Below the pieces are notes generated by a model. It made no database searches, was not told the DNA's origin, and saw nothing but the letters and a program-made list of their open reading frames with translations. A stretch of DNA of 63,897 nt, filler included. It is 12 parts of 12 records of this genome, joined end to end, with 100 filler letters (N's around TTAATTAATTAA, not from the genome) between each part and the next. Parts side by side here need not be neighbours in the genome. Positions count along the whole stretch, not along the records: positions 4,523 to 9,261 come from SRR15195285_3210; 11 more parts are not named here. The stretch is one strand, 5' to 3'. The position numbers and the translations under genes were made by a program. Position 1 is the first letter of the stretch; each line of letters begins with the position of its first letter. Shown here piece after piece: positions 4,423 to 44,516 of this stretch.

Positions 4423-4522
4423 NNNNNNNNNNNNNNNNNNNNNNNNNNNNNNNNNNNNNNNNNNNNTTAATTAATTAANNNNNNNNNNNNNNNNNNNNNN
4501 NNNNNNNNNNNNNNNNNNNNNN
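4423..4522. other. Artificial contig spacer (N44-TTAATTAATTAA-N44); first of 11
   Basis: Identical 100-nt spacers also at 9262-9361, 13433-13532, 20779-20878, 24651-24750, 38031-38130, 44039-44138, 47197-47296, 52828-52927, 56996-57095, 60567-60666. The 12-mer supplies stops in all six frames. Confidence 0.99.
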
Positions 4523-7500
4523 ACCTGCCGCGCAACAATGTCGGGGGCCGTCTGGTACGCACCGTGCACGACCGCAGGCTGCTGCGACAGGAGCATCAGG
4601 AACTATTATGCCACGAGCACTGAGGTATCCGGCCGGCCGCTCGAGTTCAAGCGCTGGAGAACCTACGATCCGCGGGTCCGCGGCTGGTACCAGCAGCTGC
4701 AGCTCGCGTGGCTTTCAAACGGCACGCGTGCAGTGTTCTCAAGCATGTACGAGTTCGCAACGAGCCAGGCGCTTGGGATATCAGCTACCGCCGCGATGCT
4801 GAACACGCAAAACGAGCTTGTTGGGGTGTACGCGGTTGATTATGACGTCGGTACCCTCTCGGCAGTCGTCAATCGCTCAATCACAGCTTCAATGGAGCAT
4901 ATTGCGCGAGCGTGGACCTTCGCGGTGGAGCGCGACAACGGCAAGCTCGTCGCGATATCTACCGGCGACAAACTGTATGATAAGCAGGCAATGATAGATC
5001 GAGGAGTGAGCTTTTCTGACAGTCGTCTGAACGCGGTCGACGCCAGCCATGCCTCGATCCGGGAGGTGGCCCGGATGCTCGCGGCTGACAACTGGCCGGC
5101 CGATGTGTTCTCGAGGATGCCAGTGCAGGAGCCAGCGTCTAACACCGATGGCTTTGAGTTTTACACGGCCGCTATCACAGTCCGCGGCTTAGATTGGCTG
5201 GTGGTTGCTGGCATTGATGTCCGCTGCCAGCGCAACGAGGTCTGGGATTCTGAAGCTGGACGCTGCAAGGCTTGTCGCGGAGGACAGCAGCCGCAAGGAC
5301 CTTCGTGTCAACCCTGCCCGCGCGGACATGCTGGCGTAGATGGTCTGTGCGAAAGGTGCCTGGACGGCACGCACCCAGTAGGCACGAGAACAGAATGTAT
5401 TGCTTGTCCGGCCGGGTTTGCTGGGACGCAGGGACATTGCACCGCTTGCAACGCAGGTGGTCAAGTGGCGTCACAAGACCGCAAGTCATGTGTATGCAAG
5501 TCAGGCACTTATGACAGCTGGTGCTCCCTTGACTCAGCGAGACTAGCGATTGGCTCAGGGGCTACGTGTGTGGCTAGTGAAACACGCCCTGCACAGCCGC
5601 TGCATGTGTTTGTGTGGCCGCACGGTGGGCGTACATGGAGCCACGAACCTGGAAGATTTGGTGGAGACGACATAAACCTGGAGTGGACCATGGCTGACGT
5701 CCCTGAGTTGGCAGTCGCAACTACAGCAAACGGTTGTCCGTGCCTGGCTTGGCCTTGGGCAGGAAGCTCAGACTTTCTCAGCCAGGAAAGTGGAATGCTT
5801 GATGTCGAGCTCGACGGCACCGTGTATCACTATCCTCAAGCGTATGGTATGGATAGCTGCGCCGCTCACGACAATATTCGTCAGCCATATTGTGCTGATG
5901 AGCAAGGAAATCCCTTGCCGGACTCCCCTAGCTTCTGTGACAGCCATTGGTGCTTCGTCGATGCGAACAACTGTGATGTAGCCTCTGACCCTAGCAGCTA
6001 CTTTATGGGATCTCGCCCTACTCTGCACTACAGTTACGAAGCGTGTTCATCCGTGAATGAGTTTGCGTGCACTGATTTCGATGAGCAGTGTGCTGAGGCG
6101 TCGGCAGAGACTGACCGAGACCGGTGCATCCAGTGCCCACGTGACGGTGTGGACTGTACAGATGGGGTAGCCCGTCCACTTGCAGGCTTTACAGAGGTCG
6201 AAGACGCATCCTCGCTTCGCTTCGATCAGCATTTTTTCGCCTGTACGGAGCCAGAGTACTGCGTCGGGATTTCAGAACACGGGAGAAATTCGAGCAGGAT
6301 CGGAAGCTGCATTGCAAATCATGACGGTGTTCTCTGTGCGTCATGTCTACCAGGATATGGCTTGTCAGACAACAATGCTCAGTGCTCAATGTGTACAGAT
6401 ATCACAGTCGGTCAAGTTGTGTTGGTGTGTGCCGGAGTGTTAGGAAGTTTTGTGTTGATGCTTCTTGCTGTGAGGCAGTGGATGAAAGTGGAGCATCGGC
6501 GTGACGTCATTCGCTGTGGTCTCCAGCCGTTGCGTATCACGATCAGCTACTTGCAAGTTGCCTCCCAGATTGGGCAAGTACTCAATTTTCGTTACCCTGG
6601 GTGGTGGGAAGATGTCATTGGCGCATTGCGATATTGGATGGAACCGTGGCGTTTGCTGTTTCGATTGCTCAAGCCAGCTGCTTGCATGGAGGTTTTTGGC
6701 GTGGGACTCGGAGGATTCCACTCGCGATGGGTACTAAACGTCGTGGCTTTACCAACCGTTTCCGTCCTGATTATCACCTTGGTGAAACTTATCGTTGACC
6801 GGAGGATTGACTTCAAGAATGATGCACAGACACACATCGACCTCAGAGGAGCCCTCTTCATGATCCTATTTTTCGTGTACCCTCTGATGATGTCCACATC
6901 GATAGCAGCTTGGGTGTGCACGCCGCTGGACGGGCCATCAGGGGATAGGACACTCCTAGATGCAGACGATCTAGTCTTTTGCGAAGATACAGCGCATGTT
7001 GTTTTTCAGTCCCTGTCGGTTCTCATCATCCTGATCGTCGGTTTACTAGTGCCCATGGGGTTGGGCTGGCATCTGATCATGACAAGTCGCAAGCACGCTG
7101 CGTCCATCCACGCTCTCCGAATCAAAGAGCTGGCAGACGCCCTTTCCACACGAGAGCAACGGATCTCATCAGAAGACGTTAGGCAGGTCGCGGCACATCT
7201 CAACATCGAAGGCTTTTCATTTTTGATTACATGTTACAAAACCAACCACGTCTACTGGGAGTCGGTTGAGATGGTCAAGAAACTTTCATTGGTTGGCCTC
7301 GTTCTTGTCGTCGGTCGAGGCAGTACAGCACAACTGGTGGTTGCCCTGGCGCTGTCAATCTTCTTTCTGATGCTCCACATGCGATATCTTCCGCATAAAG
7401 ACTACTTTGACAATTGCTACAAGGCTGCTGCTGACGTGCATATCCTTATTGTGCTCGTTGTTGCGATTGTGTTGAAGAGTGGCACGAGCCGTGCTCTCAA

Positions 7501-9261
7501 CAACGAACCACTGTCTCCGATATTCTACGAACAATTCCTGACAGCTTCCTTTGTAGTGCTACTCCTTCTCGGCTACCCCGCTTGCACACTGTGTAAAATC
7601 CGAGAACTGCGAGCTGTGAAAGAACGCTGGCGCTTCATACAGCATGGCGCGACGCACCACGTACAGGCGAGTTGTTGTATTGCAGAGCTTGCGGCAGACT
7701 CTCGACGGGTGACGCCAGAGCTCGGGCGAGCTTTTGATCTTTACAGGTGCGGAGCAGCTGTGGGAGCTGGGGAGCGCCAGGAGCTGAATTTCCTTCTTTC
7801 GAGTTACCTGGGTGGCTGGCAGTTCGGCAAGCGGTATGCGGCATTTCTCAGCCACTACAAAGAAGAGGGCGGTACCGTTGCGAGCTTGTTGCATGAAGCA
7901 CTTGTGAGATCGCTGCCTGGAGTCCACGAATCGCAAGTGTTCCTTGACTCCAACAACCTAAGGAACCTTAGACAGCTGGAAGAGCACGTCGTGGACTCCG
8001 AAGTGCTCATCCTTTTGCTGACCAAGAAAGTGCTGAGCCGTCCAATGTGCCTCTTAGAACTTTACACGGCAGCGCAGCACAAGGTACCGATTATCGTTCT
8101 GCGATGTGAAGGACCAGGTGGTGGAAAGGCCGACCAAATACCCGAGGCTCTGAAGGATATTCCAGCTCACTTGCGTCACCATGGATCTGCAGAGTGCGTC
8201 GATAAATCTGACAACATCAATCTCGGTTCTCTTCAGATCTCTGCAGCTGACCTCAGCCAGGTATTGCGGGGTGCGCTGATGGGACTCAACTGGAGGAAAA
8301 GAATCCTTTCATTTTCCTCTCATGCGTCCGGGAAGCTCAGACATGGACAGGCTGTGGTAATCGCTAAGGAGATGGTCCAGCACACTGGCGACGAGACGGA
8401 CAGGAAGACGAACTCTATAGTGCAAGAAAATGCGGCCTTGAGTGTTGAGCTGCTTTCCATTTCTGAGGCCACGATGACAGAAATGGGACTCGATCCCGAA
8501 CAGAAGCTATGCATTGTTCATTCAGAACAAGCGGATGATGAGGCCGTACGCCTTCGTCACGAGCTCATAGAAAGGACTGATCTAAAGGAGGGTCAGATCT
8601 ACCTCCGCGGAGAAGTCGAAGGAGGCCAAGATGCACTCTTTCAGAAGGTTGTGGTCGTGCTGATGTTGCAAACGCGGAATGTCCTCCGCGAAATTCATTG
8701 CATCAGCTTGCTCTACAAAGCTCTGGACCGCAACATTCCGCTCATCACAATCAACCTTGTTACTGATCATCCATCTATAGACAAAACTCCACAGCTACAA
8801 GAAATGCAGTACAAATACCGCGAGAGTGCAAATCTCATGAAGCACCTGAGTCTCCTAGCACTGCCCGAGGGGAAGCTCGAGGACGTGTGCGCACTGGAGC
8901 ATGGTTCTCATTCAATTCAGAAGATTCAAGACACGCTGTCAAACAACATCCCTGACATCATTTCCACGAATATATTGGCGGCGTCGGGCGGACATGAGAC
9001 AGGGAGTGGCGCTATAGAGTACAAGATGCAGATTGCTGAGGTCGTTCGTAGGCTTGAGGTCGTTTGCAAAGGAACAGTAGACGGAGCAAGGGTCAGGAGC
9101 TCCGCAGGAGAAGACTCTGACTCAGCGGAGCCTTGCACTGAGCAGCCAGATGTTGAGGAAGGAGAGTCGTTAAAAGCAGTCAAGGACTTGCCAGTATCAA
9201 GTGTTGAAGAAGAAAAAGAACCGGGCGCAGTAGAACCAGAACCAGAACCAGAACCAGAACC
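4523..9261 (+). CDS. Large membrane receptor, partial at both ends: Cache-like sensor, Cys-rich repeats, kringle-like module, multi-TM core, TIR plus degenerate TIR
   Basis: YDPRVRGWY Cache motif (4664-4690); CxxC repeats; WCFVD module (~5734-6045); hydrophobic helices with YLQV, YP, YWESVEMVKK; TIR AFLSHY...VFLDS..L..L...SEVLILLLTKKVLSRPMCLLEL (7835-~8110); second TIR-like unit from 8501. Frame open at both contig ends. Confidence 0.8.
9233..9261 (+). repeat. (GAACCA)n microsatellite encoding EPEPEP at contig end
   Basis: Direct reading. Other contig termini also end in simple repeats: (CAG)n 1-24, (CT)n 9362-9387, GCAC/GGAC-type repeats ~20725-20778, (GGC)n 47297-47326 and ~52928-52955, (GGCTCA)n ~60667-60695. 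Confidence 0.95.
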
Positions 9262-9440
9262 NNNNNNNNNNNNNNNNNNNNNNNNNNNNNNNNNNNNNNN
9301 NNNNNTTAATTAATTAANNNNNNNNNNNNNNNNNNNNNNNNNNNNNNNNNNNNNNNNNNNNCTCTCTCTCTCTCTCTCTCTCTCTCTGTCCTGCGCGCGT
9401 GCGCGCTGTTTCTCCATCCACCCACAACATTTCGTGCCTG

Positions 9441-12400
9441 TTAGCGCCCTTGCGTAGCACCAATGGCATCCGCAAAAGTAGCCTCCGCAGCGACGGTGCC
9501 TGCGCAAGTTTCCGCAGAGCAACTGCCCGGAGCCACACCGGGCCCACCACAGCAGGAGAAGGACTCCTGGCACCGCGCCGCTGTGCCAGAGCAAATGGCC
9601 TGGGTCTCGGTGATGCCCGCGGCCTCCGCACAAACCTGAGAGCTGCGTTACGCATCCGAACGACAGCGAGCAGGATTGAGTCAGTCGATGGGCGTTGCAC
9701 AAGGAATCATCGGCAAGTTTGGCCAGCAAAGCAGTCACGTACCTTTCTGTCTCAATAACTGCATCGGCAACAGTCGGGACGCCGGCGTAGTCGTCCGCTG
9801 AGCACATGTCGTGATCATACCAGTCATTCTTCGGCCTTAAGTCACCCGTTTCAGTGCACGCGGCGGGGTTTGTGCACATAGGGTATCGCGAGCCTGCAGC
9901 AGGCTGTGTCCCGGGAGGGTAGCCTTTCCTGTCGTCGTCCATGCAGCACGTGGAAAAATATCCAGCGTCCTCGACTGCCATTGAGTTTGCGAAGGAATCA
10001 GCGTCCCGCTCAGCCGCGTAGGCCTGGTCGTGTGCGTTGTTTCTGCCGGTGATGTCGATGCGCGTGCCGTACGTGTACCGCAGCCGTTCGAGCGTGCGGA
10101 GGTCACGCGACCGAGGGACGCAATTGCCGGAATGATCGTTGTCCGCAAGCGTCTCGAGCAGCGCGTTTCGTCGCGCTGTCTCGCCGTAGTCAAAAGACGA
10201 AACGAGCACCGTCATGCCGACTACGCCGACAAGCACTGGGTCATCCCCTGACGTGTAAACTGCCAGCGTTCCCGCAACAACTTCTTTGCCCGTAGACTCA
10301 TCTGTGTATATTTGGCTCCACCGAACTGTGTCGCTTGGCGCTGCTCGGCTCAAAAACTGGTAGTAGCTCGCCAATGCATCCTCTACCATGCTCGGGTCAC
10401 GAATGTGGGAGTAGATGCCGTGGTTCTGACAGGTGATTTTCTTCGCATACGGTGGGTTGTAGCGTGCTCCATTGAGACTCGCGAGGAAGGTGTTTCCCAT
10501 GAGGTCATGCCACGGCGTGCAGATATCGTTCTGACAGAACAGGTTGTCTTGATCATCCGAAGTAAACTCAGTGGGTGGGCGCGTCACGCTGTACCAGAAG
10601 ACGTGAGCCTGGTGCGGCCCAGTGGCACCGGTTGGCACACTGTCCTGATTCCGCGATTTAACCTCCCCCCAGGTGGCGTCATACTGTTGTATCACCACCT
10701 CTGCCTCGTCGGGGTTCGATGACCCCTCGCGTGGTCCGGCGCCGTCCGTAAAAAACAGCACGGCCTTCGTGCACCCGGCAGTTGCATCTGCGACAGAATT
10801 GTCCAGCACGTCGAAAGCCTTGCTAAATCCTTTTCTGAAAGAGTTTCCTGCACCGGCTGTGATGGTCATTTCGGTCAAGTACTGTTCCAATAGCGCGCGA
10901 TTACCGCTGGTCATTTGCAACATCTTGTTGTCCGCCGTTGCGCACAGGCCATCCACGTTGTATAAACCGCAGTCTGCAGTGCAACCTGGGTTGAAACAAC
11001 TTGCGAAATTCCCGAATGGAATGATTTGCGCGTAATCTCTCTCGCTGAGAGTCTCAAGCACCTTCCGGACGGCCACCTTGGCCACCTCAAGTCGTGTCTC
11101 GCATTCAACTGCAGATCCGGACCCCGCACACTGAGACATTGATGCGCTCAGGTCCACGACTATCACAATATCCTTCGGACCGGACACAGCTGAAACGTAC
11201 CAGCTCTCCTCGCGCGGATCGTGCCAGTTACAGTACTTCGCGTCCTGTACGAGTCTCTGCTGATTCGCTTGATCGCCGCTGCAGGTGTTGGTGCAGTCAA
11301 ACCCGTACTTAATGCACTGTCCGCACTGGAAGCCCTGCGCGACACAGTCTGCGCACGTCATCTCATCTGTGATTCTCTCGCCAGACACGGCGTTTACTGT
11401 CAGCCATGGAGCCGTGCTCTCGTCAGCCATCGAATAGGCAAGGTCTAACCCCCGGTTGTCCGGTCTGTCACCAGCATAAGATGGCAGCTGACGCGCGTCG
11501 CCTGGGAACGTCCTTAGGGGTCCCGCTTCGGAAGCAAACCACTGAAACTGTATTCCAGCATCGGAGACTACATTTTCTTGGAATTGGGAGTCTAATCCTT
11601 TCGAGAAGCAGACCGCCTCTTTGACTACAGGTGAGTCGCGGTCAACCCTCTTGTTGATGGTCACTGTACTGTGAGCTGCATCCATCTTACGTCCATCTCC
11701 GTCACATGTGCACAGATTGTTCGTGCCAAACACGTCAGAATGGAGGCAGCTGTCATTGCTATTCCACTCCGCCGATGGGTTACAGGCGTCATCGGTGCAG
11801 TGGTCGTTGCTGCTATCATCGCCACAGGTTGACGTGATGGTGGTGCACCTACTCTCGTACGCTGAACGGGCTCTATCCCGCATGGCCACTACCTTGGCAA
11901 CACGGCTTGCGATTGCATTTTCGAGCGTTGGTCGACAAACGCTGTTGGTCAGGTCGTACCCTGCGCCACATGAGCAGTGTGGTGTGGTACCTATTTCTGG
12001 TGGAAGCACCTCGTTGCATGCGTGATTGGTCCCTGGCAGTGGTCCCACAGTGTCAGTGCACGGATGAGGGGTGCCGGCACACTCATCGACGTTGACGCAT
12101 TCTCCGGACGCATCTCGGCGCGTGTATCCTGGAGCGCAGTCAGCGCACGTGTCTCCGTCGTATCCAACGTCGCAAACACAGGCCCCACCTACACACGTAC
12201 CCTCATCGCCACACACAACTCCGATACATGGGTCAAGGGTGCCGCATTCCAAGATGGAGCTGCTCCACGAGGGTAGTGCACCACCAGACTGAGAGCAGCT
12301 CGGAGTCTCTGTCTCCTGTACCATGCCCGTCGGGCAAGTTACAGTGATCGTACTGCCGACATCGCACCGACCATTGGCGTGACATCCTCCTGTAATTTGA

Positions 12401-13432
12401 GCGTCGTTCAGCGTCAGTAGGCTTAGGGAGCAGTAGTTATGTCGGCACGTTGGCGCTGGTTCCCAAAGGCCGGACTCAAGGCAGCGCAGCTGGGGCGTGC
12501 CGCTTAGTGTGTAGCCATCGTTGCAGGTGACCGTCAGTGGGCTGGGTGCGCCGAAATATGTGTCGCCTTCAACTGTGGCGCCACTCACAGCGAGCGCGCC
12601 ACAATCTTTGGCCACACACGTAGCGCCGCCGACCGGGCCGGGCTCGTATCCTAGCAAGCATTCATTGCACTGGACTCCAGTGGTATGCTCGGGGCACGCG
12701 GTGCAAGCGCCACCCGTAAACACATAGTCAGTAATGCAGGTGCACGTCGGGATGGTTCCTGGAGGAGCAGCGGGTATGCATCTGTCGACATATTCTGCGG
12801 GACCGCACGGTGGCGGATCACTCAAGCATTCATCTACGTTTTCGCACAACCTGCCAACGAGTGTATATCCTGGCTCGCACTCTGCGCACGTGTCTCCGCC
12901 ATCCGTGTAGCCGGTGGGACACTCGCAGGTGATGTTCTCCGACTCGCACCGGCCGGGGGCACAATCGATAGCTGCGCACGGATCGACCACAATAATTCCA
13001 CCAGTATCCGATGTCCCCGCTGCCCTGCCATTCGGCCCGGCTTGGATGACTGCTTCATCGTCTTCTGACAGCGCAACGACGGCCACTACGGCGACGGTTG
13101 CCAACACAAGCACAGCGACGATAGCCACTTTCATTGAGCTGGTAGCCGCGAGTTTCATGCTCGTGGTCTCCAGATCGATGTTGCTCATCGACGCTTGGCT
13201 CTTGCTGCCGCCCCCCATTTCCCTTTCGAAGCCGGTCCCAAGCTGCCCCGATTGGCCGCGTCCAGGGGACACACCGCGAGGTGCCCCGCCAAAGCCCGGA
13301 GGAGGTTGCCACTGTGTCTGCCCGGTACCGCGGTTGACATAGTAGGTTCGGCCTGACTGTGCGTCGACCATCGAGCTCCACTCGCCTCCCGGGGCTCGGC
13401 CGGGGCTCTGTCCTCGCGGCGGGCCGCGGCCA
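9441..13432 (-). CDS. WW domain, single TM, EGF/Sushi repeats, alpha2delta/CACHD1-like VWA_N-VWA-Cache protein; 5'-truncated
   Basis: WW: EWSSMVDAQSGRTYYVNRGTGQTQWQPP. TM: VAIVAVLVLATVAVVAVVAL. Ca-EGF NVDEC twice; CCP repeats. FQWFASEAGPLRTFPG and HDPREESWYVSAVSGPKDIVIVVDLSASM (MIDAS DxSxS), FFTDG, WSQIYTD. Intron 9643-9742 (GTACGT...GCAG) gives a final Cys-rich exon ending at TAA 9441. Confidence 0.8.
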
Positions 13433-25235: not shown

Positions 25236-28200
25236 TCAAAGAATTCGATCAGGTTTTGCCGTCCTCTCTGCGCGCGATTCTGGCATCGAAACGGGGCGCT
25301 GCTCTTGCGCATAAATATCCTTCAGCTCCTCATGAAGGGCTTCCTCCTCCTTCCACTTTCTCCTCAGCGTCTCCTGGTGCTTCTCTCTCTCAAGTGCGTC
25401 CATAGCCGTAAGAGGCTGGACAAACTCGTCGCGCGCAATTTGGGCACGGAAAGCCTCGGCGCGGGCGTCGAAGATAGCCTGGCAGCACCATCTCATGGCG
25501 GCTGATGTCTTTTCGTCCCGGTACTGCGACTCTTCCACAATGTCATTCAGGCGTGTCCTTGCCTCACGGAAGACAAACAGCGCTGTTGTCCAGTAGATCG
25601 AAAGCGCTGGGGAGCAACAAAACCGGTGAGTTTGTGCAGGCACAAGCGTCTCTATAAGCTCTGGGGACGTACTACTTTGGTCTGCAAACTTAACGAGCAC
25701 CGCCCAGAGCGGCAGAAGTACCACAGCACCTTTGCCCGCAAACTTCCGCGCAGCCTGTTGTTGCCAGGAGGAGCCGCTATCCTGCGCCCGCATTTGCCGT
25801 TTCTCTTCCTGTTCCTCGCCTTCTCGCTTCCTCTGGTCTTCCAACGTGACGACAATCAGGTAGCTGCGTCGAACAAACCCAGGTTATCGTTGGGCATTGT
25901 TGAGCTCTGGGTGGGCAGGCTTACAGTTCTTCGACGCGGATGAAGTCTTTCAAAGACAGCGCAGTGTGTCCGCACACGGCGTGATGCACCCAGTCGATCT
26001 GAGTGGCAGCAACACAGACTCAGAGTGTTCTCGGCACCAAACGAATCCAGGGACGCGCACCATGTAGGCAAACTCCTTAAACGGAAAGAAGCTGCTGATG
26101 AAGCGGCCCCATTGGTTAAGCCGCCCTGCGTCGGTGCAGACGTGTCAACTCATGTGGGCCGTGCACAAAAACTTTGTGCCGTACCACTTTCAAGCAGCCA
26201 TCGTCGACGATGTATCGTGTCATCCGCGTAGCCATGCATGATTTGAAGCGCTGACTGGTGGCAGTATGCGCAGAATGCTACCGAGAAAAAACGTAGCACT
26301 GCACCACCACACTCGTTGAGGCTGGTTATTTCTTTACGTTCGCACTGGTTGATCAGCTTCGTTCGGGCCCAAAGGAACAGAAACGCCGCGTACATGGCAA
26401 TGGACACCAGCTGCATGACGAGCTTGAGTCGCCGTGCCTTGTGCAAATAGATCCATCTGTCCAAGACGGTCTGGAGCAGCAGTGCGGTGATATACACAAT
26501 CAGTCCAACTGGTGTTGCCTTGGCAGCATCCTGCGCACCTTGCAGGTCTCTGGCGCTCAACGAACTGCCAAGGCCCTTTACCAGGCCAATGATGTCGAGT
26601 GGTGGCTGCTTCTCACTAAACGTTGCCATGCACAATTCATGCCTCCCGCAAACATTCGGATCACGGTGCCAAGGCGAACTTCCAGGTGCGGTTTTGAAGG
26701 TTGAATCCAGATTCCATCTGGGGCTGACTCCAAGTGTCAATCCATTGTCATCGTCGCCAGCAGGTGACACAGTCAGTGTGACTCCATATTGCTGGTGTGC
26801 TGTCATGGCAGAATACTGCGCCTGGCCGATGTCTAGCTGCTTGGAGGCCAGCCTTGCAAACGCGGGGAAAGAAAAGCCTAAGAACAAGGACTCCGTCTTG
26901 TTTGCTCCATTCGACAGCTTCTTGCTGTCACGGAAACGAATTCACTTCAGCGTCGCGCAAAACAGCCTGCAGTTTGGGCGGGGACGTACAGCTGTTGGAT
27001 GTCATTTGGCCGCAGTCGCAAAACTTGAGGGTGAACGATGCCATCAGCGTCTCTGACACTAGTATCAGCTCTGACAAATGTAACCTTGAGATTGGCCTCC
27101 ATCCGAGGGGTCTCAGCCTCGGATATTGTATCAAGATGAGCACGAAGTCGCTGACGAGCTGCTGTCTCCTCCCAGCTGCGCACAGCAGACAAAGCGTTAG
27201 CATAGACAACGGTTGCACCTCGATGAAGCGCACCTCGCTTCAGCCGGTTGCCCAATCCGAATATTGGCAATCTGCTGCGGCCCATCGCTTAGGTCATATC
27301 CCTGGGACTTCATTCTTGCCTGCACTGCCTCCTTGCCCGTGCTGCTAGCGAGCGTCGAGGTGCACGTTTTGTCGGCGGAAGTCCACGTGCAATGGGTGAC
27401 ATCATCTACCGGGCACTGGTCTCCGTACCGCGGCCCTGAGCTCTCAGACTGATGGAGGAATGACGAGCAGAAGGCGTCGCTGCCACTATAGTCGTTGGTG
27501 TAAAACTTCTGTAAACTGTCCACGCTGTCGGGCCCGCTGTCCCACGAATCGCTAGGCGAGATTTTCGTTGCAGACGATCGATACACTGTGTACGTACAGC
27601 TCCCGCTCGGGCACTGTTCCATTGTGATATCGAGCTGGACCTCGACGCTCGTCACATCATTCAGTTGCATCTCCATTCCGAGATTGAGGTACAGCCATGG
27701 TGCGAGCAGAACACAAAGCAACTGCGCGCAGAGCATCTTTGTGTATGTGTCAACGCCTTTTCTGTGCCAGCTCGAACGCTTCGGCTCAAATGGCCAGCCC
27801 GAAAACAGTAGATGTCTGAGTGCTTTGAATCGCCTGAGGCTCAAGCCAGGTTGTTGTTCTGATATGAAACCATTAAACCAGGCCCGAACTTTGGAGGAAA
27901 ACCACGCGCGTGTTTTGCGTCCACGTTTTGGCAACGGCGGCAAGCCGCTCAATCTGTCTTTCAGCATTTCTGCATCCATCTGCAGGGCTTCGATAATGCC
28001 ATCTGCGAGAGGCGATTCTTGCCAACCTCGTGTCAATGGATCCCAGTAGCCTCGAGTCCACACAGAAGAAATGCCCCAGTGGTGCATGCCTGGTAGGCGC
28101 AGCTCTGATTGGTGAAGGTACCATACAAGGTCGGTGAAAACATCAACATCTTGCTGCTCGATCGACTTGTACAAGGCCGCTACAACACACCGGTCGAGCG

Positions 28201-31200
28201 TAGATGACGAGACCGTCTGCTGGTAGATCGCCCGTCCAGCTCTCTCCCGTACGGGCGCAGGTGCGTCTACGTGTGCCAAAAACAGATACGCATATCCCTC
28301 AGGCCCCACCACCTTCCGAGTCCGTCGGCCTCTAACTATTCCCGGGAGCTTAGCCAGCTTCTGATAAACATTCGCCGGTGTGACCCACTCGCCCTGGCGA
28401 ATGCATCGTCTCTGATGCAACAGCAGCATCAGCAGCAGAAACCAGTCCCAAACAGCATTTGCATTTATATCTATGAAACCGTCAAACTGACGCAGGTTAA
28501 CGCCGTAGAAGCCCTCATCTCCTGCATTCCAGCTAGGACTGGCCGGCCAGGCCGACATAAACTTGACGAAGATGATTCTGACCTCGACCAGCGTGATGCA
28601 AAATTGCCAGAAGTGAGCCTGCTGCCTTGTGGTACGGAACTCTTGCATGGCAACTGACTCAGAGTCGATCTGAGTCGCCGGCACCACCCCGCAATAAGCG
28701 AACCAGGCAAAGAACACGAAGAATGACGGCGTGTCCATGTGGACAACAAAGTTGACGCTAAGCGCAACAACACAAAGCACTGCTGTCTGCCCATAGCAGG
28801 CTAGCAGGGCGGCGCGAACCACGTCTGCCAGCCTTCCATCAAGCTGCTCCACCAGTCGACCAAGAAGGGGCTGGCCCTTGACGAGTTCCTTCACGGCTGC
28901 GTCGAGGCCTGACGCGCTGGGACCAGCATGCTTTGGCGATTGGGATGTGAACCATGGCTTAGTCGCCATAGTGGGGACAAACGAATGTGGGCATCCGCTG
29001 GCTCGGCTTTGCAGCCACCCAAGCAGAGCTGCACCTACTCCCCGCTCACTCGTTTGTGTCTGCAGCCAGCGTCGGTAATGGCGCTGAATCGAGCGGGCAG
29101 CATGGTCAAGGCGCGTCCCTGTCGGAGATGTGCTATGTGTCCGTGCGTCCGTACTCGTAAGCAGCCCTGTGAAGTAGAGTACCGCTTTGTCCCCGAACAT
29201 CAAAGCTTGTGTGCTGCCAAATGCTTCACAAAGATCCGAACGCTGACCATCGTAAGCCTTCGTACGTTGGAGATTAGCACACTGTTCGTCACGTGCGTTG
29301 AGATAGTTAGAACGATCCTCGGATCCTTGCTCGTCGTCACGCTGTTTCGCTTCTCTCTTCTCCGCCTCTAGAGCAGATCGGTACGTCTTTGTCTTCAGAA
29401 GAACCTTCAAGCAGATCGCGATGCACAAGCAAATGCCGGCTAGCCATATGCTAATCATACTTTTAACACTGTCACTTCGAAACTTGTGCACGCCCATCAC
29501 GCTCTGCCAGCTGCCTACGTTGCAGATATCGCTTTTCTTGGAGCCGTCTGCATTGAGGCAATTGCTGAATATCGGCATCTGGAACGCACATTGGACCAAC
29601 AGTGAACCTGTGGCAAAAGCCATCAGGGCTGCGATGCGCCCATCCGTGTGTTCAATCCGCCTGTGATCGTGCAGAAGCACTATTGCCGTGTACACGTAAG
29701 TCAGCGACAACAAATCGTTGTCAAACGGTTGGTAGGAAGCAAAAGCAAGGGATGCCACAAGCAATGTGACGACTCCGTCGTACACAGACAGCACACGTAT
29801 GCCCACAACGTCTGCAACTCTTTGCGATATCGACCGCTTAGCTGTTGCAGCCCCAAGCGGATCCTCGGTCTCTACCGTCTGATTACTCAAGACCTTCTTC
29901 CTTCGTCCTTTGAGCTTTTCAAATCTTTGCTCGCAATCGAGCTTTCCAGGAAACAGCAGATCGTCTTTATAAAATTTATGGTTTTCTGCCCGCAGGTACA
30001 TGTCATCCAGCAGGTGCGATTCATTGCTGGTGAAGTTCCGTGTATTCCAGCGTTCGGCGTGCTGTCCCAGGTCCTGCTCCAACGCCCACTTCGTTCCAAA
30101 CCGAACGCGTGCGAACGTACTGACCACGAACAGCACCAAACCATCGACAAGCAGCTTCCAGCCAAACATGTCCTCGGACGCTAACCAGTGACGCCAAGTG
30201 TGTGCGTTAGCTGCGCTGCTGCCGGCGCCGCATGGTTCGAAGCCAAGGCCTAACATGTATCTGACCACCAGCATAGCAGCCAGCATGCGGGAGGTGAAGC
30301 ACCAGTTTTTGGGGTCGTATGATGCGAAGCGTTGCTCTCCGATAAGAGACGGCGTGTTGAACCAGAACAGCAGCACTGCGTACGTGCCGCACATGATGTC
30401 ACCGCCTCCACCTGTGTCCGGCGCGCCACGCAAGCAGATTCCAAACAGAAATGCGAGGTAACACGTCGACCTTTGAACGTTTGCAAGTGTGATGTAATTC
30501 TCGATCGTGCGCCAATATTGTGCGTTCGACTCTGAAACAGATTCTGATGGTGGTTCTGGAACCGGTTCTGGTTCGGCTGTGGAATACGCTGTGGATGCAT
30601 ATTCTGCATCCAGAGCACGTTCCGTAGCCACCGTCATTTTATTCAGGGCCTTCCACTGACTGTAAGCATTGAGTATTAGAATCGCGATGGCGAGCAAAAC
30701 CAATATGCTTGATGACCCAGTGATGCTAAACGAGCTGCTGATCAGAAGCGTCGTTCCCACCAGGTACCGATTGATGGACGTGTATTGTGCGTCACTGTGC
30801 AACCCACGGTGCGTTCCTGTGACCAGATCGCAATCACGTGTGCTGCTGCCCAACGCTGTTAGCCAATGGACGTCAACGCGAAGCGCCAGTCGCGCCTGCT
30901 GAATTTCGCCGTGCACTGCCAATCCCAGCGTCACAAGGACAGGAGCCAGAATCGCCCAGTCTGCGACGGACGCCAATGACGAGGTACCTGTTGTTGCGCC
31001 CACCAGCCAAGGAGCACAACAGTACCACCATCGCACAGCCACATAGTACATCCCTTGGGCGGCTCCAACGGGCACAGACGCATTGTCCAGCTCGTCTGTT
31101 TTGTTGAAATGCTGCCCCGCACCAAACCACGTCGGCCCAGTCGATTCGGCCCAGCAAGTACCGGCAGTACCAGTGTTGCCGGAGCCAAACGAGAAGGAAG

Positions 31201-34200
31201 CAATGAAAGAAGACGAAGACCATGGGTCCGTTTTCACCAGGCGAAGCAATAACAACCAGGTCAGGTGCATCACGGCGACAAAGAACACGACGCCGATCCA
31301 ATTTGCTGGCACGAAGCTCCATGTCCGGACATGGCGAAGCGAATCATGCCGCCACTTTGCCATTGGCCAACCGTTCACATCCTGCTCACGACGCTGCGAC
31401 CCGTCCAGTCCAGCAATGCACACAAACACACCAGTGCAAAAGTAAACACCGCTGGCGATGGAGCCGCTCCATGCGCCGGCAATGATCATGCATGCGGCTG
31501 TGATCAGGTCGCCAAGTTGTGACTGCGTAATCACCCAGAGCGGTAGCTGCGCGGTCGACGGCCTGCGAATCTGGCTGCCGCGATACAACCACACAACAAC
31601 GAAAAAGGCAATTGCGTCCGGCCAGATGCTGGCCCATGGTCCGGGCGGAATGTTGGACGTGTCTTCCACCGCAAAGATTCGCAGCAGCTTCACAGTACAG
31701 TTAACGTTTTGTTCATCAATGAGGCGCGTCATATTGCGCAGTTCTTGGCAATCAGCATCGACCATCTGCGCCAAGTACTTCGCGCCGATCGTCACCCCCA
31801 GCCACACAATTGCAAGGACAATGATGCCGTCAATCCACTGCGTTCCGGTATGAACAGGCTCGGCTTCGGACTCGTGCTCGGGCTCAGGCTGGGGCTCGTG
31901 CTCGTGCTCAGGTTCAGGTTCAGGCTCGGGCTCGGGCTCAGGCCCCATCGCAGCTAGCAGTTTGTCCAGCGTCGGTCTGTCCAGCGTCTCCCTAACGCTG
32001 CAACTCACAATGCTCACCAGTGCCACGACCACAGGCACACCAAAGGGAGTCCAGCACTGGCGTAGAGTTGTCAGAAAGTCGGAATGGCCGTCATGCGCCG
32101 CACACGCTTCGTTTGCTGAAAGTCCAATGACATTTGCCCATCGAACAGCGGCTGCAGTGAGCCATTCGGGGCGACCCATACACTGCCACGAATACAATGC
32201 TAGCACCACGATCAAACAATAAAAGAGTGAGACACGGCCAGCCTTGGCCTGCCCATCCGTGGATGAGGTAGCACCCCACAATGCCACTGTAAGGTACAGT
32301 GCGTGTAGGAGATCAGCCTTCTTCTCAGCGGATTGGAAAAAAGACGGATTCAATCCGCTGATCAGCAACGCAGCCCACAACGGGTAGAAAGCACAACGCC
32401 TAATCCAGATCACAAGCAACTTTGCTCCCTTTATGCCGAGCTTCTCAGCTGCCGCTACAATCTCTGGGGACACCTCTGTGTCAGTGGCCTGCGAATGCTG
32501 CTTTGAATCCCGCTGCCGATTGTCAGCCTCCTCCGGGCCGTCCCTCGAAGCTACGTCCGCACTCTCCACAGACGTGACCATTCCCGCGGCAACTGCGCTC
32601 TTGAGCTGCTCCTGGTCCGTGGCATTGGAATCGCGGAGGGTCCGTGGCAGCTCAAATGTCACCGCATCTTCGGGCTCGGGCTCGGGCTCGATTGTGGCTT
32701 CGGGCCCCAAGTGACCATCGACAGGTGGATGCTCGGGCTCAGGTTCGGGCTCGGGCCCCGTCGCAGCTAGCAGTTTGTCGAGCAGACTCTTGGACAGATC
32801 AGGATTTTCGGAGAGGTTCTCTAGCGTTTCCCACAGCTCTTTAGCCGAATTGCGCAACAGACTACGCTTTGCTTCTGCCCATTGCTCGCCCTGTTTCAAA
32901 ATAGCCTCTACGCGTGGTCTTAGCTGTGCGATTGCGAGTTCCTTCGATGCTGTGCCTCCACTATCACGCATCCGCAGCAGCAGTTTTGCTGGCTCAGCAA
33001 TGCCGGAGCGGAGCTCGTCAATGCTAAACTCCTCGGCGTTGTCTAGCGCCGCTTTGACGTCCTCCCAGGCCATTGCCTGCTTACTTACAAGCTGCTTCAT
33101 CTTAGGACGCAAAGACGCGATGGCGAAATTTCTCGCAGCCGGGCTGCTGGGATGTTGCAGGCGCTTGAAAAACGCTTCAGGATCTTCTACTGCAGACTGC
33201 ACCTCGTCCAAGCTATCCAACGGCTCTAGAGCACCACGAATTTCATGCACCGACAAGTCCAGTCCTTGTGCCCCGAATAAAGGCACAAGCCTTTTGCTCA
33301 CAATTGTCTTCAGCAGCCGCAGGGCCAAATCTGCAGGCTGCTCGATGCCTGCCTGCAGCTCCTCAAGTCCGGCGCTGTCCACTGCAGGAAGGATAACCTC
33401 CCATCGCAGGCTACGCTCCTCTATCTGGCGCTGCAACTTCGCCTTCACACTGTTCCGGGTCAGCTGCTGTCGTGCGATGAACGCTTCTGGATCACGCATC
33501 ACGTCTTGGAGTTCGCGAATATCGTGAATTCTGTTGAGCGCTTCGCGAACGACCGTTTCGTCGAGACCCCGTTTCTTGGCACTTCTCTGGATAGCGTCCC
33601 GCATCAGCTGCAAACAGAGATCCTTCGGTGCTTGCCGCGCTTGGCTGAAGACGGCCTGAAGTTCCGACAAGCTGTTCTGTCGTCGAAGATAATCACTGAC
33701 CTCTCGGCGCGTGCTATCATCGCCGATATTCTTCATCACCTCCAGTTTTTCAATCTTGCTTGCAAGTGCGTTGCGGGTCGCCTTTACGCACAGATCTTTC
33801 GGCTGACGCAGGGCTTGCAGCAACTCTGTGCTTGAGAGTGAAGCTATGTGCGGCTGCAGATCGTCCCACATGATGCCGAATGGCGCTATGAGGGGTTTGA
33901 CAACCGGTGCCACCTGGTCGTTGATGATGGTAGTCTTTGTCTGGCCAAACTTTTTCATCACAGCCGTCCGTGCAGGTTCTATAAGGCCGTACAAATAGCG
34001 CACAGCTCTCGAAGATGCTTTGAACCTGGATGCCGATGCCGTTGCGACACGGGCGGTCCAGTCAGCAACCACACCCTTCGGATCCACTGCACCGGCAAAG
34101 CCAGCGAACGCCAGGCACTGGATAATGAATCGTCCACCGAACTTGCCGAACAGTGGTTTGCCTAACTTTGAACCGCCGCCAATTGCAGCGGACACCAGCC

Positions 34201-37200
34201 AGTGCATGTCACACCAACGCGTTGCGTTCTGTTTGACGTCCACCAGATCGCCCCAGGACCCTGAGGCCGAGCCAACGTCCGATGGGCACCGGTCATCCCA
34301 CAGTGTGTGCGTGCAGTCGTAGAGGTATTGAAACAATATCAAGGCTGCCACGATGCAGAATGTTGTGACCCACGCACACCGCAGGCACGCACACCGCAGG
34401 CTTCGTTGCGACTTGGTTGCATAGGTGAGACAAAATAGGTAGATGGGCACGACCATAGCCAGCAAACACTGCAATGCCATGATGAGCACCAGTGCGCATG
34501 CAGCAGACAGCGGTATGGTGGGCAGCTGGCTCCTTTCATCCCGTCGGTCCACCATCGCATCATTCTGGAGTGCAGAACCTTGCTTTCCATCAATCGCAGC
34601 CAAATCGTCCAGCTTCGGCTGCGACTGTGGCTGCGGTTCTGGCTGCGGTTCTGGCTGCAGATCCAGCTGCGGATCTGGCTGCAGATCCGACTCGAGCACA
34701 AGCTCGAGCTCGGAGCCGATGAAAAATTCGAGCAGCTTTCCGACGTCACTTTCATCAAGTCCGGGCTGCTCACGTTTGTACGCGCGGGCCACGCGGTCAT
34801 GCAAACCGGCCAAGTCTCGCCTTTCTTTGGCAGTCGGAACGCACTCGTACGAATCCTCCGTCTGCATCAATTTTTCCTCACAAGTCCTATCAGAATGGAA
34901 GACCGGCATAAAGCCTTGGATGTTGAAAGCCCAGTGGTGGTCCGCAACCTCTGTAGGATGCCGCCGCCCGAAAATGTATCGGTCGGACCCACCGGTTGGT
35001 CGATGATCCTGCAAGTACGCCTCCAGGAACTGGTGCTGCAAAAGTGCCGCGCAACAGGAAAGCAGTGCCAATCTAGCACCAATGTTGATAATCAGCTCAG
35101 CATGAAGCACACCTTCAGCTGGAAGGCTGAAGAACACAGCAGCTGTGCCGTTGGTGGGGATGTTGAAACTCAGAACAGCAAAGTCGACAAGCAGATGACA
35201 AGCGATGTATACGGTCAACGGCCACAAACATGATCCGCAAACCGGTGGAGTCATGGCGCTTGACTGCAGGTCGTTGATGTGGTCGGACTGGCGGAGCCAA
35301 AGTACATGCCAGCCAAGAAACCCGGCAGGCAGTAGAAGATATGGAACGTGCAAGAGTGTCCGCGAGGTACCACACGCAACAATTAATGCTGCCACTGCAG
35401 TAAGTTTGATCACAACTATTTTCGCGGGCGAGAACCTATCTCTCTTGCGCACATACTGCATGTGCGAGAACAGTTCCACCCTCCGTTTCGTTGAGCACTC
35501 TGGCTCCGGCTCGACATGTGCAGCGTGCACGAGGGCTGACCCACCGTTCCATATCTCAAAGGCCGCTATGACAAGGGCGACGGCATCGAAAACTGTGTTC
35601 AGCGCGCCCTGAGTGCTCCCGCCAAACCAGTCAGCCGGCCCAACAACGTGTGCCCACCATTCGTCGCCAGGGCGCTTCAAATGGATCATGAAGAGCGCGA
35701 TCACGCCCACAACAAATGGAGCGGTTACCACCACAGCATCGTAGCACCCAAGGCCACCTCGAAGACTGCGCAACGGCAACGTCGCGAGCACAAGTCCCGC
35801 TAGGACAGCTACCCATCCACTTTGGGCACCGCAGACAAGGGCCAAACTGACGCCTGCAAACACATCTCTCCACCCACGCTGCTTGTTGTCGACAAAAGTC
35901 AAGCGGTTCTCCATCCAAAATTCTAGCAGAACATTCTGAGCGTCAGGCAAGGGCAAGCGGTCTTCGTTAATCTTGTGAACCTTGTGCTGAAGGGCTTCCC
36001 GCACCTCAGCTTGAATCTCAGAATCACGGGTTTGTCTTGGGGATTTTTGAAGGGCCAACGAAGCCCGTTTCATGCTCATGCGCGGGCTTAGCATGTCCGA
36101 CAGCTTGGAAACTAGACCGGTGCTCTGAGTAGAGCTACTCAGATACATTTCCTCGGCCTTGGCCTTGGTGTTTGTGTCTCCAACGCGATGGTAATTTTCT
36201 TGCAGCAACGACCAGAGTGAAACTAGCACTAGCAACAATGTGCACAGACACGGCTTTCCAACGGCGCACACAGCAAGCTTGCTTGCCTGCGGCAGATGCG
36301 CCAGGAAATGGTACAGCACATATATAGCTATCAACAGAAACACCAGCAGAACGACGTCCGCAAGAAACAGGGACAAGCTGTCTTGTTGCATGAACGCTGC
36401 AACTAGTACGACGGCCACCAAAAGCGTACCAAGGTCGGCATTGCCTTGCTTTTTATCTGCTTTGTACAACGTCCACGCTATCGGAATGAACGCCATAAGC
36501 AGCGGGAAAAGGGCAAAACTCCAGAGGCAATTTGTGTGGCAAACAAAATCCACGAGCGACGAACAACTCCACATACATGCCTTGATAGTGGGATTGTAGA
36601 ACAACGACATAAATGTAATCATAATCGCTGGTACAGCAAGGTTGAACAGCAAGTCCACCGTTTGTGGCTCGTTCCCAAGCCTCCGCAACTGCCCCTTGCA
36701 ATTTGCGAGTGTGTCTGCGGCAATCATCCAGCGAAGAACCTCCTTTGCGTTCCACGCAGGATATAGAAGCCTCAACCAACGCGGCGCGGAACGGGCATCT
36801 GCTGCAAGATGTGATGACAGGTCGAGGAATTGGAGCATGTGGAGCCAGCTCTCGTTGATTTTGTATGGCACAATGTCCACTTCTTCTGTTGCCCACATCA
36901 CGAACCAGTAGAACGACGTCAATGCCACAAGCACGACGTCAAAGCCAAACCATACCCAGACACCGGAATCGAATGTCGCGGGCCAAGCAAGGTCCACTTG
37001 AAGCACCCCAAAAGCCCACGCCGCCACAGGCGGGGTTGCAACCAGCACCAAAAGCCGCACCACCCCCCACGCAAATGAGTACACTGCACTTCCGCAACTC
37101 TGTCCCGGCATTGGCCGCAGCGGGTGCCACTGAAATCGGTGGGCGCTTGCGAGAGTGGCCGCCCCCAAAGCAATGAATGTAGCTGGCGGAGCATGTCGAT

Positions 37201-37936
37201 AATACGATATCATTGCTGCGCAGAGCACGACCAGCCCAAGACCAAGTAAATGGACCCAGTAATCATGCTCGCGCGTGAGCCCGCATCGTGGCCCGCATTT
37301 AGCTCTAACCACATTTGCTGCCTCTGACAGCCAAAGCGCAGCAATCCACGAGACAGCTGTCACGCACAATAGCAAAACGAATGTCACATGGGCAGCGGCG
37401 CTCCAAATCGTCCGAAGCGAAGCACAGCCGCCGATGAGCATCAGCATTATACCAATGGCACCCACCCACTTCGCATTGGCACGACTTTTGTAGTAGTGGC
37501 GAATCTCAGGCTCAGTTCTGTTGGAGTAAAATCTCGCTACCGCGAATGACTCGAGCTCGCGATCGGCCCCTGTCCGTGGTTCGGGTTCAAGTTGGTTCTC
37601 CTCATCCCCTTGCCTCACACTTACCGGTATGCTCTTGGCATTTTCGGGGGAAGGTTTGGGCCCGCGGAGGTTACTGTCGTTTGGGTCTGAATCCGCGTTC
37701 GATAGGGCGGGCTGGACTGTGACCGTCCGCACAGGGGGGGAGCGGGGGGGAGCCACACCGGGGCCGTCTTCTCGAAGGGGCTGACCCAGCTCCTCGGTGC
37801 GTGACTGCGAAAACAGCCCAGGCGCCTGCCTAACCTTTGGCATGCTGTACGCGCCAGCCTTGACTGAGCTTGAGCTCGCGTTGCCGCCTGGGCTCCGGGC
37901 TCCAGGCTCCGGGCTCCAGGCTCCGGCTCCAGCCAC
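25236..37936 (-). CDS. PIEZO: Piezo-family mechanosensitive channel, ~4,100 aa, atypical architecture
   Basis: Exons 37936-27234, 27175-26990, 26924-26185, 26125-26061, 25998-25925, 25863-25673, 25606-25236 (all GT-AG, total 12330 nt, in frame). Hallmarks: DTYT TM, VLDRWIYL..ARRLKL, QSALQIMHGY, anchor FPFKEFAYMIDWV...TALSLKDFIRVEELY, inner helix LSIYWTTALFVFREAR, CQAIFDAR, EEEALHEELKDIY. Start uncertain (GTG 37936; first ATG 37843; may be truncated). Confidence 0.88.
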
Positions 37937-38130
37937 GACAGGTTGGCCACTTGGCCTCGGCCACTTTCGTCGCTCCCGGAGCGGCCGCGCGCGGTTCGAC
38001 CGCCGCCGCCGCGGGTTGCCGCCCGGCGCCNNNNNNNNNNNNNNNNNNNNNNNNNNNNNNNNNNNNNNNNNNNNTTAATTAATTAANNNNNNNNNNNNNN
38101 NNNNNNNNNNNNNNNNNNNNNNNNNNNNNN

Positions 38131-43748: not shown

Positions 43749-44516
43749 GGCGAGGCCGTGAAGAGCGGAACTGGACCGTTGCCTGAAGCAGCGCACCGGC
43801 ACCAGGGACACACGCTCAGCACATGCCACACAGAGCGAGCGAAAGCACGTGGCCAGACAAGCGGAGGGAGAGGGAGGCAAGCATCTGTCGTGACCTTGTT
43901 CGACTTTGTTCCCTTCGCGATCGTTTCTCGTTCTCGTTCTCCCCCCTCCCCCTTCCCTCCCTGTGCGTTGGCCTGTGCGCTAGCAGTTTCTTGGTGCCTT
44001 GCAAGGGCGTCCCCAACGAACCAGCGAACCGACTGGGTNNNNNNNNNNNNNNNNNNNNNNNNNNNNNNNNNNNNNNNNNNNNTTAATTAATTAANNNNNN
44101 NNNNNNNNNNNNNNNNNNNNNNNNNNNNNNNNNNNNNNGACAGATATTGCACCTACGCCCGTGATGCATTTTTTCATGCAAGCACTCACACAAATGGAAC
44201 ACTACTAGATCTAGTAGGATCCTAAGGAAGAAATGCAAATGCAAACACTAAACTCCGACTCGCCAGCGACGCATCCATGTAGGTAGCGCGCGCTATACTA
44301 TAGTATGTAAAAATGCAATGCTAGCATATCGAGCATACCATACTATGAATAGTATATAGGAATTCCTACATGTAGTAGCGCCGCGCGCGCGCGGCCTTGA
44401 TTTAAAGAGCGCGCCGCCGCCGCGGTATACTGCGTGACGGATCGCCGTGACGCGTACCGTCGGTACGCATCGCGACGCACGACGGCAACGGATTTTCGAA
44501 CCTCGAGGTAGCAGAC

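Follow-up and report, generated by a model that had tools for sequence, protein, structure and literature searches.

The stretch of DNA analysed here (the window, 63,897 nucleotides) consists of 12 contigs joined by runs of N around the word TTAATTAATTAA. One of these contigs, SRR15195285_3210 (positions 4523-9261), is filled by a single open reading frame (ORF) on the plus strand, cut at both ends, that encodes most of a type-I-oriented multi-pass surface receptor of a protist. From the outside inwards, the protein carries a Cache sensor domain, a Cys-rich stalk, a membrane core of about nine helices and two TIR units, the second without the Glu that the first retains. All receptor features described below lie on the plus strand. 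The joining word was counted 11 times against 0 expected by chance (at 4467, 9306, 13477, 20823, 24695, 38075, 44083, 47241, 52872, 57040, and 60611), and the spacers at 4423-4522 and 9262-9361 bracket the receptor contig. Because the parts of the window are separate contigs, gene adjacency across the spacers is artificial, and neighbours in the window are not necessarily neighbours in the genome.

The frame is open from the first base of the contig, so the ATG at 4538 is not the true start, and it continues to the contig end with no stop at 9060. A preliminary description of this DNA had given the receptor as 4523-9060; its start stands, but the frame runs on to 9261 and both ends are cut. 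Residue numbers used here are those of P0001, the 1573-amino-acid translation of 4538-9256. A database protein of 1844 amino acids (P0002) is 99% identical to P0001, with 11 differences over 1573 amino acids. The contig corresponds to residues 231-1803 of P0002 and lacks 230 N-terminal amino acids, which comprise the signal peptide (a hydrophobic signal-type segment at 41-59 of P0002) and the first part of the Cache domain, together with 41 C-terminal amino acids. Two further relatives, P0003 (1878 amino acids, 39% identical) and the fragment P0004 (36% identical), are colinear with the frame except that two ectodomain modules stand in swapped order. An assembly chimera or a non-coding frame was considered and ruled out, as P0002, P0003, and P0004 are colinear across the entire frame, which establishes it as a real intron-free coding region. 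The contig breaks off within an acidic low-complexity tail ending in (EP)n (9074-9261), beyond which P0002 continues. The next contig in the window opens with a (CT)n run, after the break of the receptor contig in its (EP)n-coding repeat.

The first cytosolic unit (TIR1, 7829-8386, residues 1098-1283) is assigned as a catalytic-type TIR domain from its TIR_2 match, its AlphaFold model and its Foldseek matches. A full HMMER scan with residues 1055-1520 against representative proteins returned 1211 matching proteins at E ≤ 1e-3 and 399 at E ≤ 1e-10, with the family consensus FLSHYK..EA...AR / FLDSD.L.DLR / T..VL.RPWCLLEL.TA...VPIV. The TIR1 domain alone matches TIR_2 (PF13676) at E 2.1e-4 and 22.2 bits (cut-off 28); P0003, which is 56% identical in TIR1, scores 29.2 bits and passes the cut-off. 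Among 38 short family members, TIR_2 matches 30 (E ≤ 0.01, best 1.4e-9), PF01582 matches 10, and ThsB_TIR matches 10. The Glu of SRPMCLLEL (E1174, codon 8057-8059) lies in a column that holds Glu in 189 of 203 domain matches and is invariant in our alignments A1 and A2. In the family consensus a Trp precedes this Glu by four residues, the same spacing as that of W96 and E100 in RUN1 (bioRxiv 10.1101/2021.10.02.462850). E1174 is accordingly spaced as, and would be the equivalent of, RUN1 E100, an assignment drawn from the W-x3-E spacing and the fold match and not from a residue-level superposition. Arg is kept in 175 of 204 and His in 148 of 167 TIR-family matches, and the joint conservation of Glu, Arg, Pro, His, Lys, and Asp has the form of an active-site pattern, not of an interface.

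The AlphaFold model of the whole cytosolic module, built from 27 sequences, has a pLDDT (per-residue confidence) of 84.8 and a pTM (overall fold confidence) of 0.75, and places E1174 in helix C (model helix 115-126). The best TIR matches found by Foldseek in the PDB are the TIRs of RPV1, RUN1, RPS4, and SARM1 and the TIR of the RPP1 resistosome, with probabilities of 0.96-1.00; the single-domain entries of RPV1, RUN1, RPS4, and SARM1 reach probability 1.00, with TM-scores on the target of 0.55-0.66. Two-Rossmann glycosyltransferases and epimerases took the top Foldseek ranks and were rejected as an artefact of a two-domain alpha/beta query (TM-score 0.15-0.19, root-mean-square deviation about 20 Å). 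Single-sequence phmmer searches of the PDB were uninformative, giving E of about 1 for the C-terminal region and unrelated top matches for TIR1 alone. The 1573-position A1 profile matched in the PDB only the TRAM TIR at E 0.02, besides sub-significant dCache and mGluR Cys-rich matches.

The second cytosolic unit (8486-9073, residues 1317-1512) is a diverged, Glu-less duplicate of TIR1. Profile alignment of 23 unit-2 segments with 167 TIR1-type segments by hhalign (99.7%, E 1.4e-25, 115 columns) sets L1391 (codon 8708-8710) on E1174. In the AlphaFold model both units have the same strand-helix order, and the family profile matches the TRAM TIR in the PDB (E 0.02). All 22 relatives that cover the Glu site carry another residue there: Arg in six, Leu in five (the query and P0002 included), Gln in four, Ala and Ser in two each, and Val, Cys, and Lys in one each. 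The Arg and Trp of the RPW segment are likewise replaced, mostly by Glu/Gln and by Arg/His. Unit 2 is nevertheless kept in most of 26 aligned relatives, and its identity to P0003 (41%) exceeds that of the linker (24%) and the tail (21%). Since it lacks the Glu in all relatives that cover the site and is more conserved than the linkers, unit 2 is, judged by sequence comparison, a pseudo-TIR that has been maintained rather than left to decay.

Proteins with TIRs in tandem occur commonly across the wider TIR family. Among 50 fetched proteins with two TIR1-type matches over the Glu column, 36 have Glu in both, 13 in the first only, and one in the second only. In the family member P0008 (762 amino acids), EF-hand motifs separate TIR1 from the second TIR unit, a hint that Ca2+ may control the TIR pair in part of the family.

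At the opposite end of the chain, the contig holds the C-terminal two thirds of a dCache_1 sensor domain (4523-5212), identified by a Pfam match under the cut-off and by a homologue profile; the contig begins too late to include its first part. When shorter relatives of the ectodomain were searched for, eight proteins (P0157-P0164) emerged, among them a bacterial-type protein with a dCache domain, a transmembrane (TM) helix and a HAMP domain (P0164). dCache_1 (PF02743) matches seven of these eight at E ≤ 0.01 (best 8.2e-21), and P0003 scores 25.4 bits, also under the cut-off of 45. In the PDB, the profile of the eight homologues finds 11 ligand-binding domains of dCache type with E ≤ 0.0032; the best is PctA (5ltx, E 3.8e-9), and the others include PctB, PctC, Mlp37-type proteins, and a diguanylate cyclase sensor.

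The segment YDPRVRGWY, which begins at residue 43 (nucleotide 4664), is part of a dCache_1AA amino-acid motif (4664-4840). In the HMMER alignment to PctA, whose chain numbering is offset by 8, residues Y43, R48, W50, Y51, Y71, and D101 correspond to PctA Y121, R126, W128, Y129, Y144, and D173. All ten family sequences, including the bacterial-type dCache-HAMP protein, keep the five residues (Y, R, W, Y, and D) that make up the motif. In the account of the motif given by Gumerov et al. (PMC8915833), Y121, R126, and W128 form the carboxyl-binding half and Y144 and D173 the amino-binding half, and exchange of single residues in PctA lowered the binding affinity 61-fold (R126A) or abolished binding (D173A). 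The Cache domain looks like a bacterial-type dCache_1AA domain in a eukaryote, and its sequence predicts an amino-acid-type ligand for the pocket.

Cache and membrane are separated by Cys-rich modules that together span about 400 amino acids. The stalk begins with CxxC-type repeats read from the translation (5222-5527), of the Ephrin_rec_like kind seen in paralogues; Ephrin_rec_like itself matches the paralogue P0005 and the relative P0089, and the CxxC stalk of the window protein has no Pfam match passing E 1. Further Cys-containing extracellular modules (5528-6301) are kept in P0003, in another order, and in P0004; they have no Pfam match, and an Atlas search with the middle ectodomain gave no usable match. 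A juxtamembrane Cys knot follows (6302-6394) that is weakly DUF7630-like (PF24633, E 0.0029; 18.1 bits, cut-off 27), and DUF7630 scores above its cut-off in P0005. The membrane core (6407-7642) consists of about nine helices (7 to 9) and a cytosolic helical insert. Hydropathy gives at least seven hydrophobic segments, and the AlphaFold model of residues 575-1075 (19 sequences, pLDDT 73.9, pTM 0.75) has approximately nine long helices, an extracellular beta-hairpin loop with two Cys, and the insert. An odd helix count agrees with a chain whose N terminus is outside and whose TIRs are cytosolic.

The main elements of the preliminary description are recovered in these results. Its Cache call, made on YDPRVRGWY, is upheld by the homologue profile, and the Cys-rich stalk and multi-TM core that it placed between Cache and TIRs are seen in the translation, the hydropathy and the model. 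The Glu and Leu codons that it named in the two TIR units align column for column. The TIR fold is supported by AlphaFold for TIR1, with its plant and SARM1 matches, and by the shared strand-helix order for unit 2, and the description of unit 2 as a built-in pseudo-enzyme partner fits a homologue of TIR1 that has lost the Glu and is still conserved.

Comparison of the core with solved structures by Foldseek gave a best E of 0.19 in the PDB and no likeness to the G-protein-coupled receptor, CLC, or NHE folds (TM-score ≤ 0.24). The window protein has no match to PF06011 (TRP) at E ≤ 0.1 (gathering score 28.5 bits), while this family matches six of 19 core relatives at that threshold (best 7.4e-6), at profile positions of about 270-367, with P0003 and P0004 at E 0.02-0.035. 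PF06011 look-alikes of the core found in the Atlas score 0.92 and serve as a lead only. In BFVD two giant-virus proteins match the core with probability 1.00, one of which (Megaviridae) is annotated "Transient receptor potential ion channel" (E 2.7e-3). The core is PF06011-like and not a member of this fungal and algal family, the likeness being distant.

The same core occurs with other partners. A word-index search with the core returned only P0002 and P0156, a protein of 1123 amino acids in which the core is followed by an NAD:arginine ADP-ribosyltransferase (ART; 34.7 bits, cut-off 22.3) and a WD40 propeller in place of the TIRs. P0156 is a second output using nicotinamide adenine dinucleotide (NAD+) on the same core. 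Elsewhere the core is joined to leucine-rich repeats (LRR; P0027), to PMP repeats (P0041 and P0005), and to CUB domains (two relatives). Other ectodomains also accompany this type of TIR, namely Ephrin_rec_like in P0089 and Laminin_G with the Venus-flytrap-type ANF_receptor in P0114, two proteins linked to the receptor by TIR type. That such varied ectodomains accompany one type of TIR suggests that protists possess an extensive, modular set of receptor-TIRs. A single further contig of the window (38130-43979, minus strand) encodes a paralogous receptor with the same core (tblastn E 4e-11; PF06011 26.2 bits), with DUF285 repeats, DUF7630, Cys-rich repeats, and EF-hands in the cytosolic loop of the core; its C terminus is cut by the contig end. 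Together with the EF-hands that P0008 has between its TIRs, those of this paralogue are a hint of a link to Ca2+.

We propose, with about even confidence, that an amino-acid-type ligand triggers NAD+ cleavage by TIR1, with the pseudo-TIR as a non-catalytic partner. The membrane-distal Cache pocket would be occupied by an amino acid or by a near relative among the amines and acids, and the signal would be passed on by ligand-dependent association or rearrangement of receptors. Since a Cys-rich stalk and no continuous helix lies between Cache and membrane, clustering or rearrangement is likelier than a helix piston. The TIR modules would thereby reach an arrangement in which TIR1 cleaves NAD+, yielding a messenger of the ADP-ribose (ADPR) type or lowering NAD+. 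TIR NADases require self-association, and in plant TIRs and SARM1 the DE surface of an asymmetrically placed second TIR completes the NAD+ site (bioRxiv 10.1101/2021.10.02.462850). The pseudo-TIR would take in cis the non-catalytic role that otherwise falls to a second identical subunit in TIR enzymes, and a fused, Glu-less, conserved second TIR is the form expected of such a dedicated partner. The ADP-ribosyltransferase that P0156 carries on the same core supports the idea that output through NAD+ is a theme. NADase activity has been reported for protist TIRs that carry this Glu, and a green-algal TIR, from Chlamydomonas, makes the cyclic ADPR isomer 3'cADPR (bioRxiv 10.64898/2026.04.20.719644).

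Several observations weigh against this proposal. Every Pfam match of the window protein alone falls under its curated cut-off (TIR_2 E 0.0038, 18.1 bits, cut-off 28; dCache_1 E 0.0073, 16.3 bits, cut-off 45), with MCP-like_PDC_1 at E 0.033, so that the significance of the domains comes only from homologue profiles. The E-values of the Foldseek TIR matches lie between 2e-3 and 1.4e-2 (6e-3 to 1.4e-2 for the RPV1, RUN1, RPS4, and SARM1 entries), none reaching 1e-3, and solved TIRs are weakly matched by the TIR1 sequence profile (E about 0.1). The family Trp position (residue 1170, codon 8045-8047), which is Trp in 152 of 204 matches, is Met in this protein and, among those matches, only in P0002 besides the query; the exchange could weaken catalysis or change the product. 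The preliminary description had called TIR1 intact, which is right for the Glu but not for this Trp. In the sensor, 19 residues separate the halves of the amino-acid motif, compared with 13-17 in prokaryotes (PMC8915833) and 13 in P0158, P0159, P0161, and P0164.

The Trp-to-Met exchange near the Glu, in this gene alone, would also suit a receptor in which TIR1 and the pseudo-TIR act as Toll-like adaptors, recruiting soluble TIR proteins of the same family upon ligand binding without any catalysis. Short TIR-only proteins, which are possible adaptors, are numerous in this very large family, and the top sequence-level matches in the PDB are the adaptor TIRs MAL/TIRAP and TRAM. Such a scaffold is nonetheless unlikely, in our judgement, given that the residues conserved together in TIR1 form an active-site rather than an interface pattern and that precisely these residues, kept in TIR1, are lost from the second TIR. 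A different objection concerns the ligand: the Cache pocket could bind some other small molecule or serve adhesion, the motif being retained for structure. Besides the wide spacing of the motif halves, the residue corresponding to PctA D146 is Phe here, and PMC8915833 allows some variability of the motif, while the title of a later preprint refers to amine-sensing derivatives. Set against these points are the retention of all five defining residues from the bacterial-type protein to the receptor and the severe effects of the R126A and D173A exchanges on binding by PctA (PMC8915833), and we regard a ligand of another class as quite doubtful.

The core itself could be the effector. A Ca2+-permeable, PF06011-like channel would then be gated by Cache, and the TIR module would only modulate or report. 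The PF06011 matches in the core are weak but repeated, the core matches the giant-virus protein annotated as a TRP ion channel, and EF-hands occur both in the window paralogue, within its cytosolic loop, and in P0008, where they separate the two TIRs. Fungal proteins of the Pkd2 (and Flc) type are presumably PF06011 members. Reconstituted fission-yeast Pkd2 passes Ca2+ under membrane stretch (PMC9727806). Yet the PF06011 scores are all under the Pfam cut-off, with none at E ≤ 0.1 for the window protein; no solved structure was found comparable to the core, and no pore motif was identified in it. The pairing of one core with several enzyme outputs (TIR and ART) suggests a transducer, and a channel as the primary output seems to us rather improbable. 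A very unlikely combination of these ideas is a self-contained "chanzyme", in which an extracellular amino acid would gate a cation-permeable core of PF06011 type while TIR1 would make an ADPR or cADPR-isomer messenger, the pseudo-TIR being a permanent "E-side" partner in cis, and this messenger would act back on Ca2+ stores or on the core. If true, a single protein would connect nutrient or kin signals with NAD+/Ca2+ signalling in marine protists, and the bacterial-type, VWA-free dCache_1AA domain would represent a separate, later transfer of the sensor into eukaryotes.

Whichever way its output operates, the receptor joins a known kind of protein, the protist receptors that carry TIRs at the membrane. 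In the haptophyte Gephyrocapsa huxleyi, membrane-anchored TIR receptor-like proteins have an extracellular region or several TM helices, followed by an intracellular Glu-bearing TIR like those of RPS4 and SARM1, and are proposed to be receptors that make signalling molecules (PMC12489294). The extracellular region or multiple TM helices and the Glu-bearing intracellular TIR are common to both. As far as the description in that source extends, it includes no Cache domain, Glu-less second TIR, or PF06011-like core, and one TM helix is all that the example described there has; closer layouts might be listed in Table S9 of the paper. These published haptophyte receptors went unmentioned in the preliminary description, as did the contig-edge cuts, the full amino-acid motif and the commonness of tandem TIRs. 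A 2026 preprint presenting an EukProt-based atlas counts 7,432 eukaryotic TIR domains in 13 clades, reports uncharacterised clades that are eukaryote-only, and also notes diverged tandem TIRs in a Dictyostelium protein (PMC13142454). In the literature we found no description of Cache joined to TIR in a eukaryote, although Dataset S3 of PMC8915833 or Table S9 of PMC12489294 may list it, and, supplementary lists aside, none of a conserved Glu-less partner TIR. Three of its features are new: the dCache_1AA sensor without VWA, the PF06011-like core, and the conserved pairing of a TIR with a pseudo-TIR.

The TIR module resembles most closely the plant TIR NADases (RUN1, RPP1, ROQ1, and RPS4) and SARM1, which give the best structural matches and share the helix-C Glu with, in the family consensus, an aromatic residue four positions before it. 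In those enzymes the second TIR completes the NAD+ site, whereas here the second TIR is fused in cis and lacks the Glu, Arg, and Trp; the NB-ARC/LRR or ARM/SAM context is absent, and Met replaces the Trp. With Toll-like receptors the protein has in common that it is a surface receptor with cytosolic TIRs, and tandem TIRs are described in mollusc Tolls (PMC4929906). It differs from them in having no LRR match in Pfam scans of P0001 and P0002, about nine TM helices instead of one, two TIR units, and a Glu-bearing TIR. The PF06011 "TRP" family offers a similar layout of N-terminal extracellular domain, multi-helix core, and cytosolic tail, but the scores here are under the cut-off and the tail carries TIRs.

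The sensor shares its fold and complete motif, with no insertion between the halves, with the bacterial dCache_1AA chemoreceptors PctA, PctB, PctC, Mlp37, and Tlp3. In those proteins a TM helix directly follows the domain and the output is a methyl-accepting chemotaxis protein (MCP), kinase, or cyclase module, whereas in the receptor a signal peptide precedes the domain, the long Cys-rich stalk follows it, and the output is the TIR pair. Eukaryotic alpha2delta and CACHD1 proteins also combine an extracellular dCache_1 domain with the amino-acid motif, but theirs contains a VWA insert. According to the text of PMC8915833, every eukaryotic dCache_1 protein found there carries VWA inserted in one dCache_1 domain. 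A Pfam scan of P0002 gave no VWA match, and the motif halves are contiguous, which makes this Cache domain an exception to that statement as worded there. Elsewhere in the window, a large ORF at 9363-13371 (minus strand) with WW, Sushi, EGF, VWA_N, and VWA_2 matches has an alpha2delta/CACHD1-like layout; its first amino-acid-motif half appears degenerate (HDPREESWY, directly before VWA), in contrast to the VWA-free Cache of the receptor. An unbroken ORF of 3625 amino acids at 27197-38074 (minus strand) fills nearly the whole of another contig.

TIR enzymes hold a central place in the immunity of bacteria, plants, and animals, and their usual switch is a large protein assembly or a pathogen effector. 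Here a ligand class predicted from sequence, the amino acids, and an enzyme-type TIR stand in one chain, so that control of a TIR by a small molecule would be directly testable. The module of TIR and Glu-less TIR is conserved within a large, barely studied family of protist TIRs, and it may represent, naturally and in covalent form, the asymmetric pair of TIRs that makes up the active site in plant resistosomes and SARM1. The receptor may thus offer a way to test how a small molecule from outside the cell switches on a TIR enzyme.

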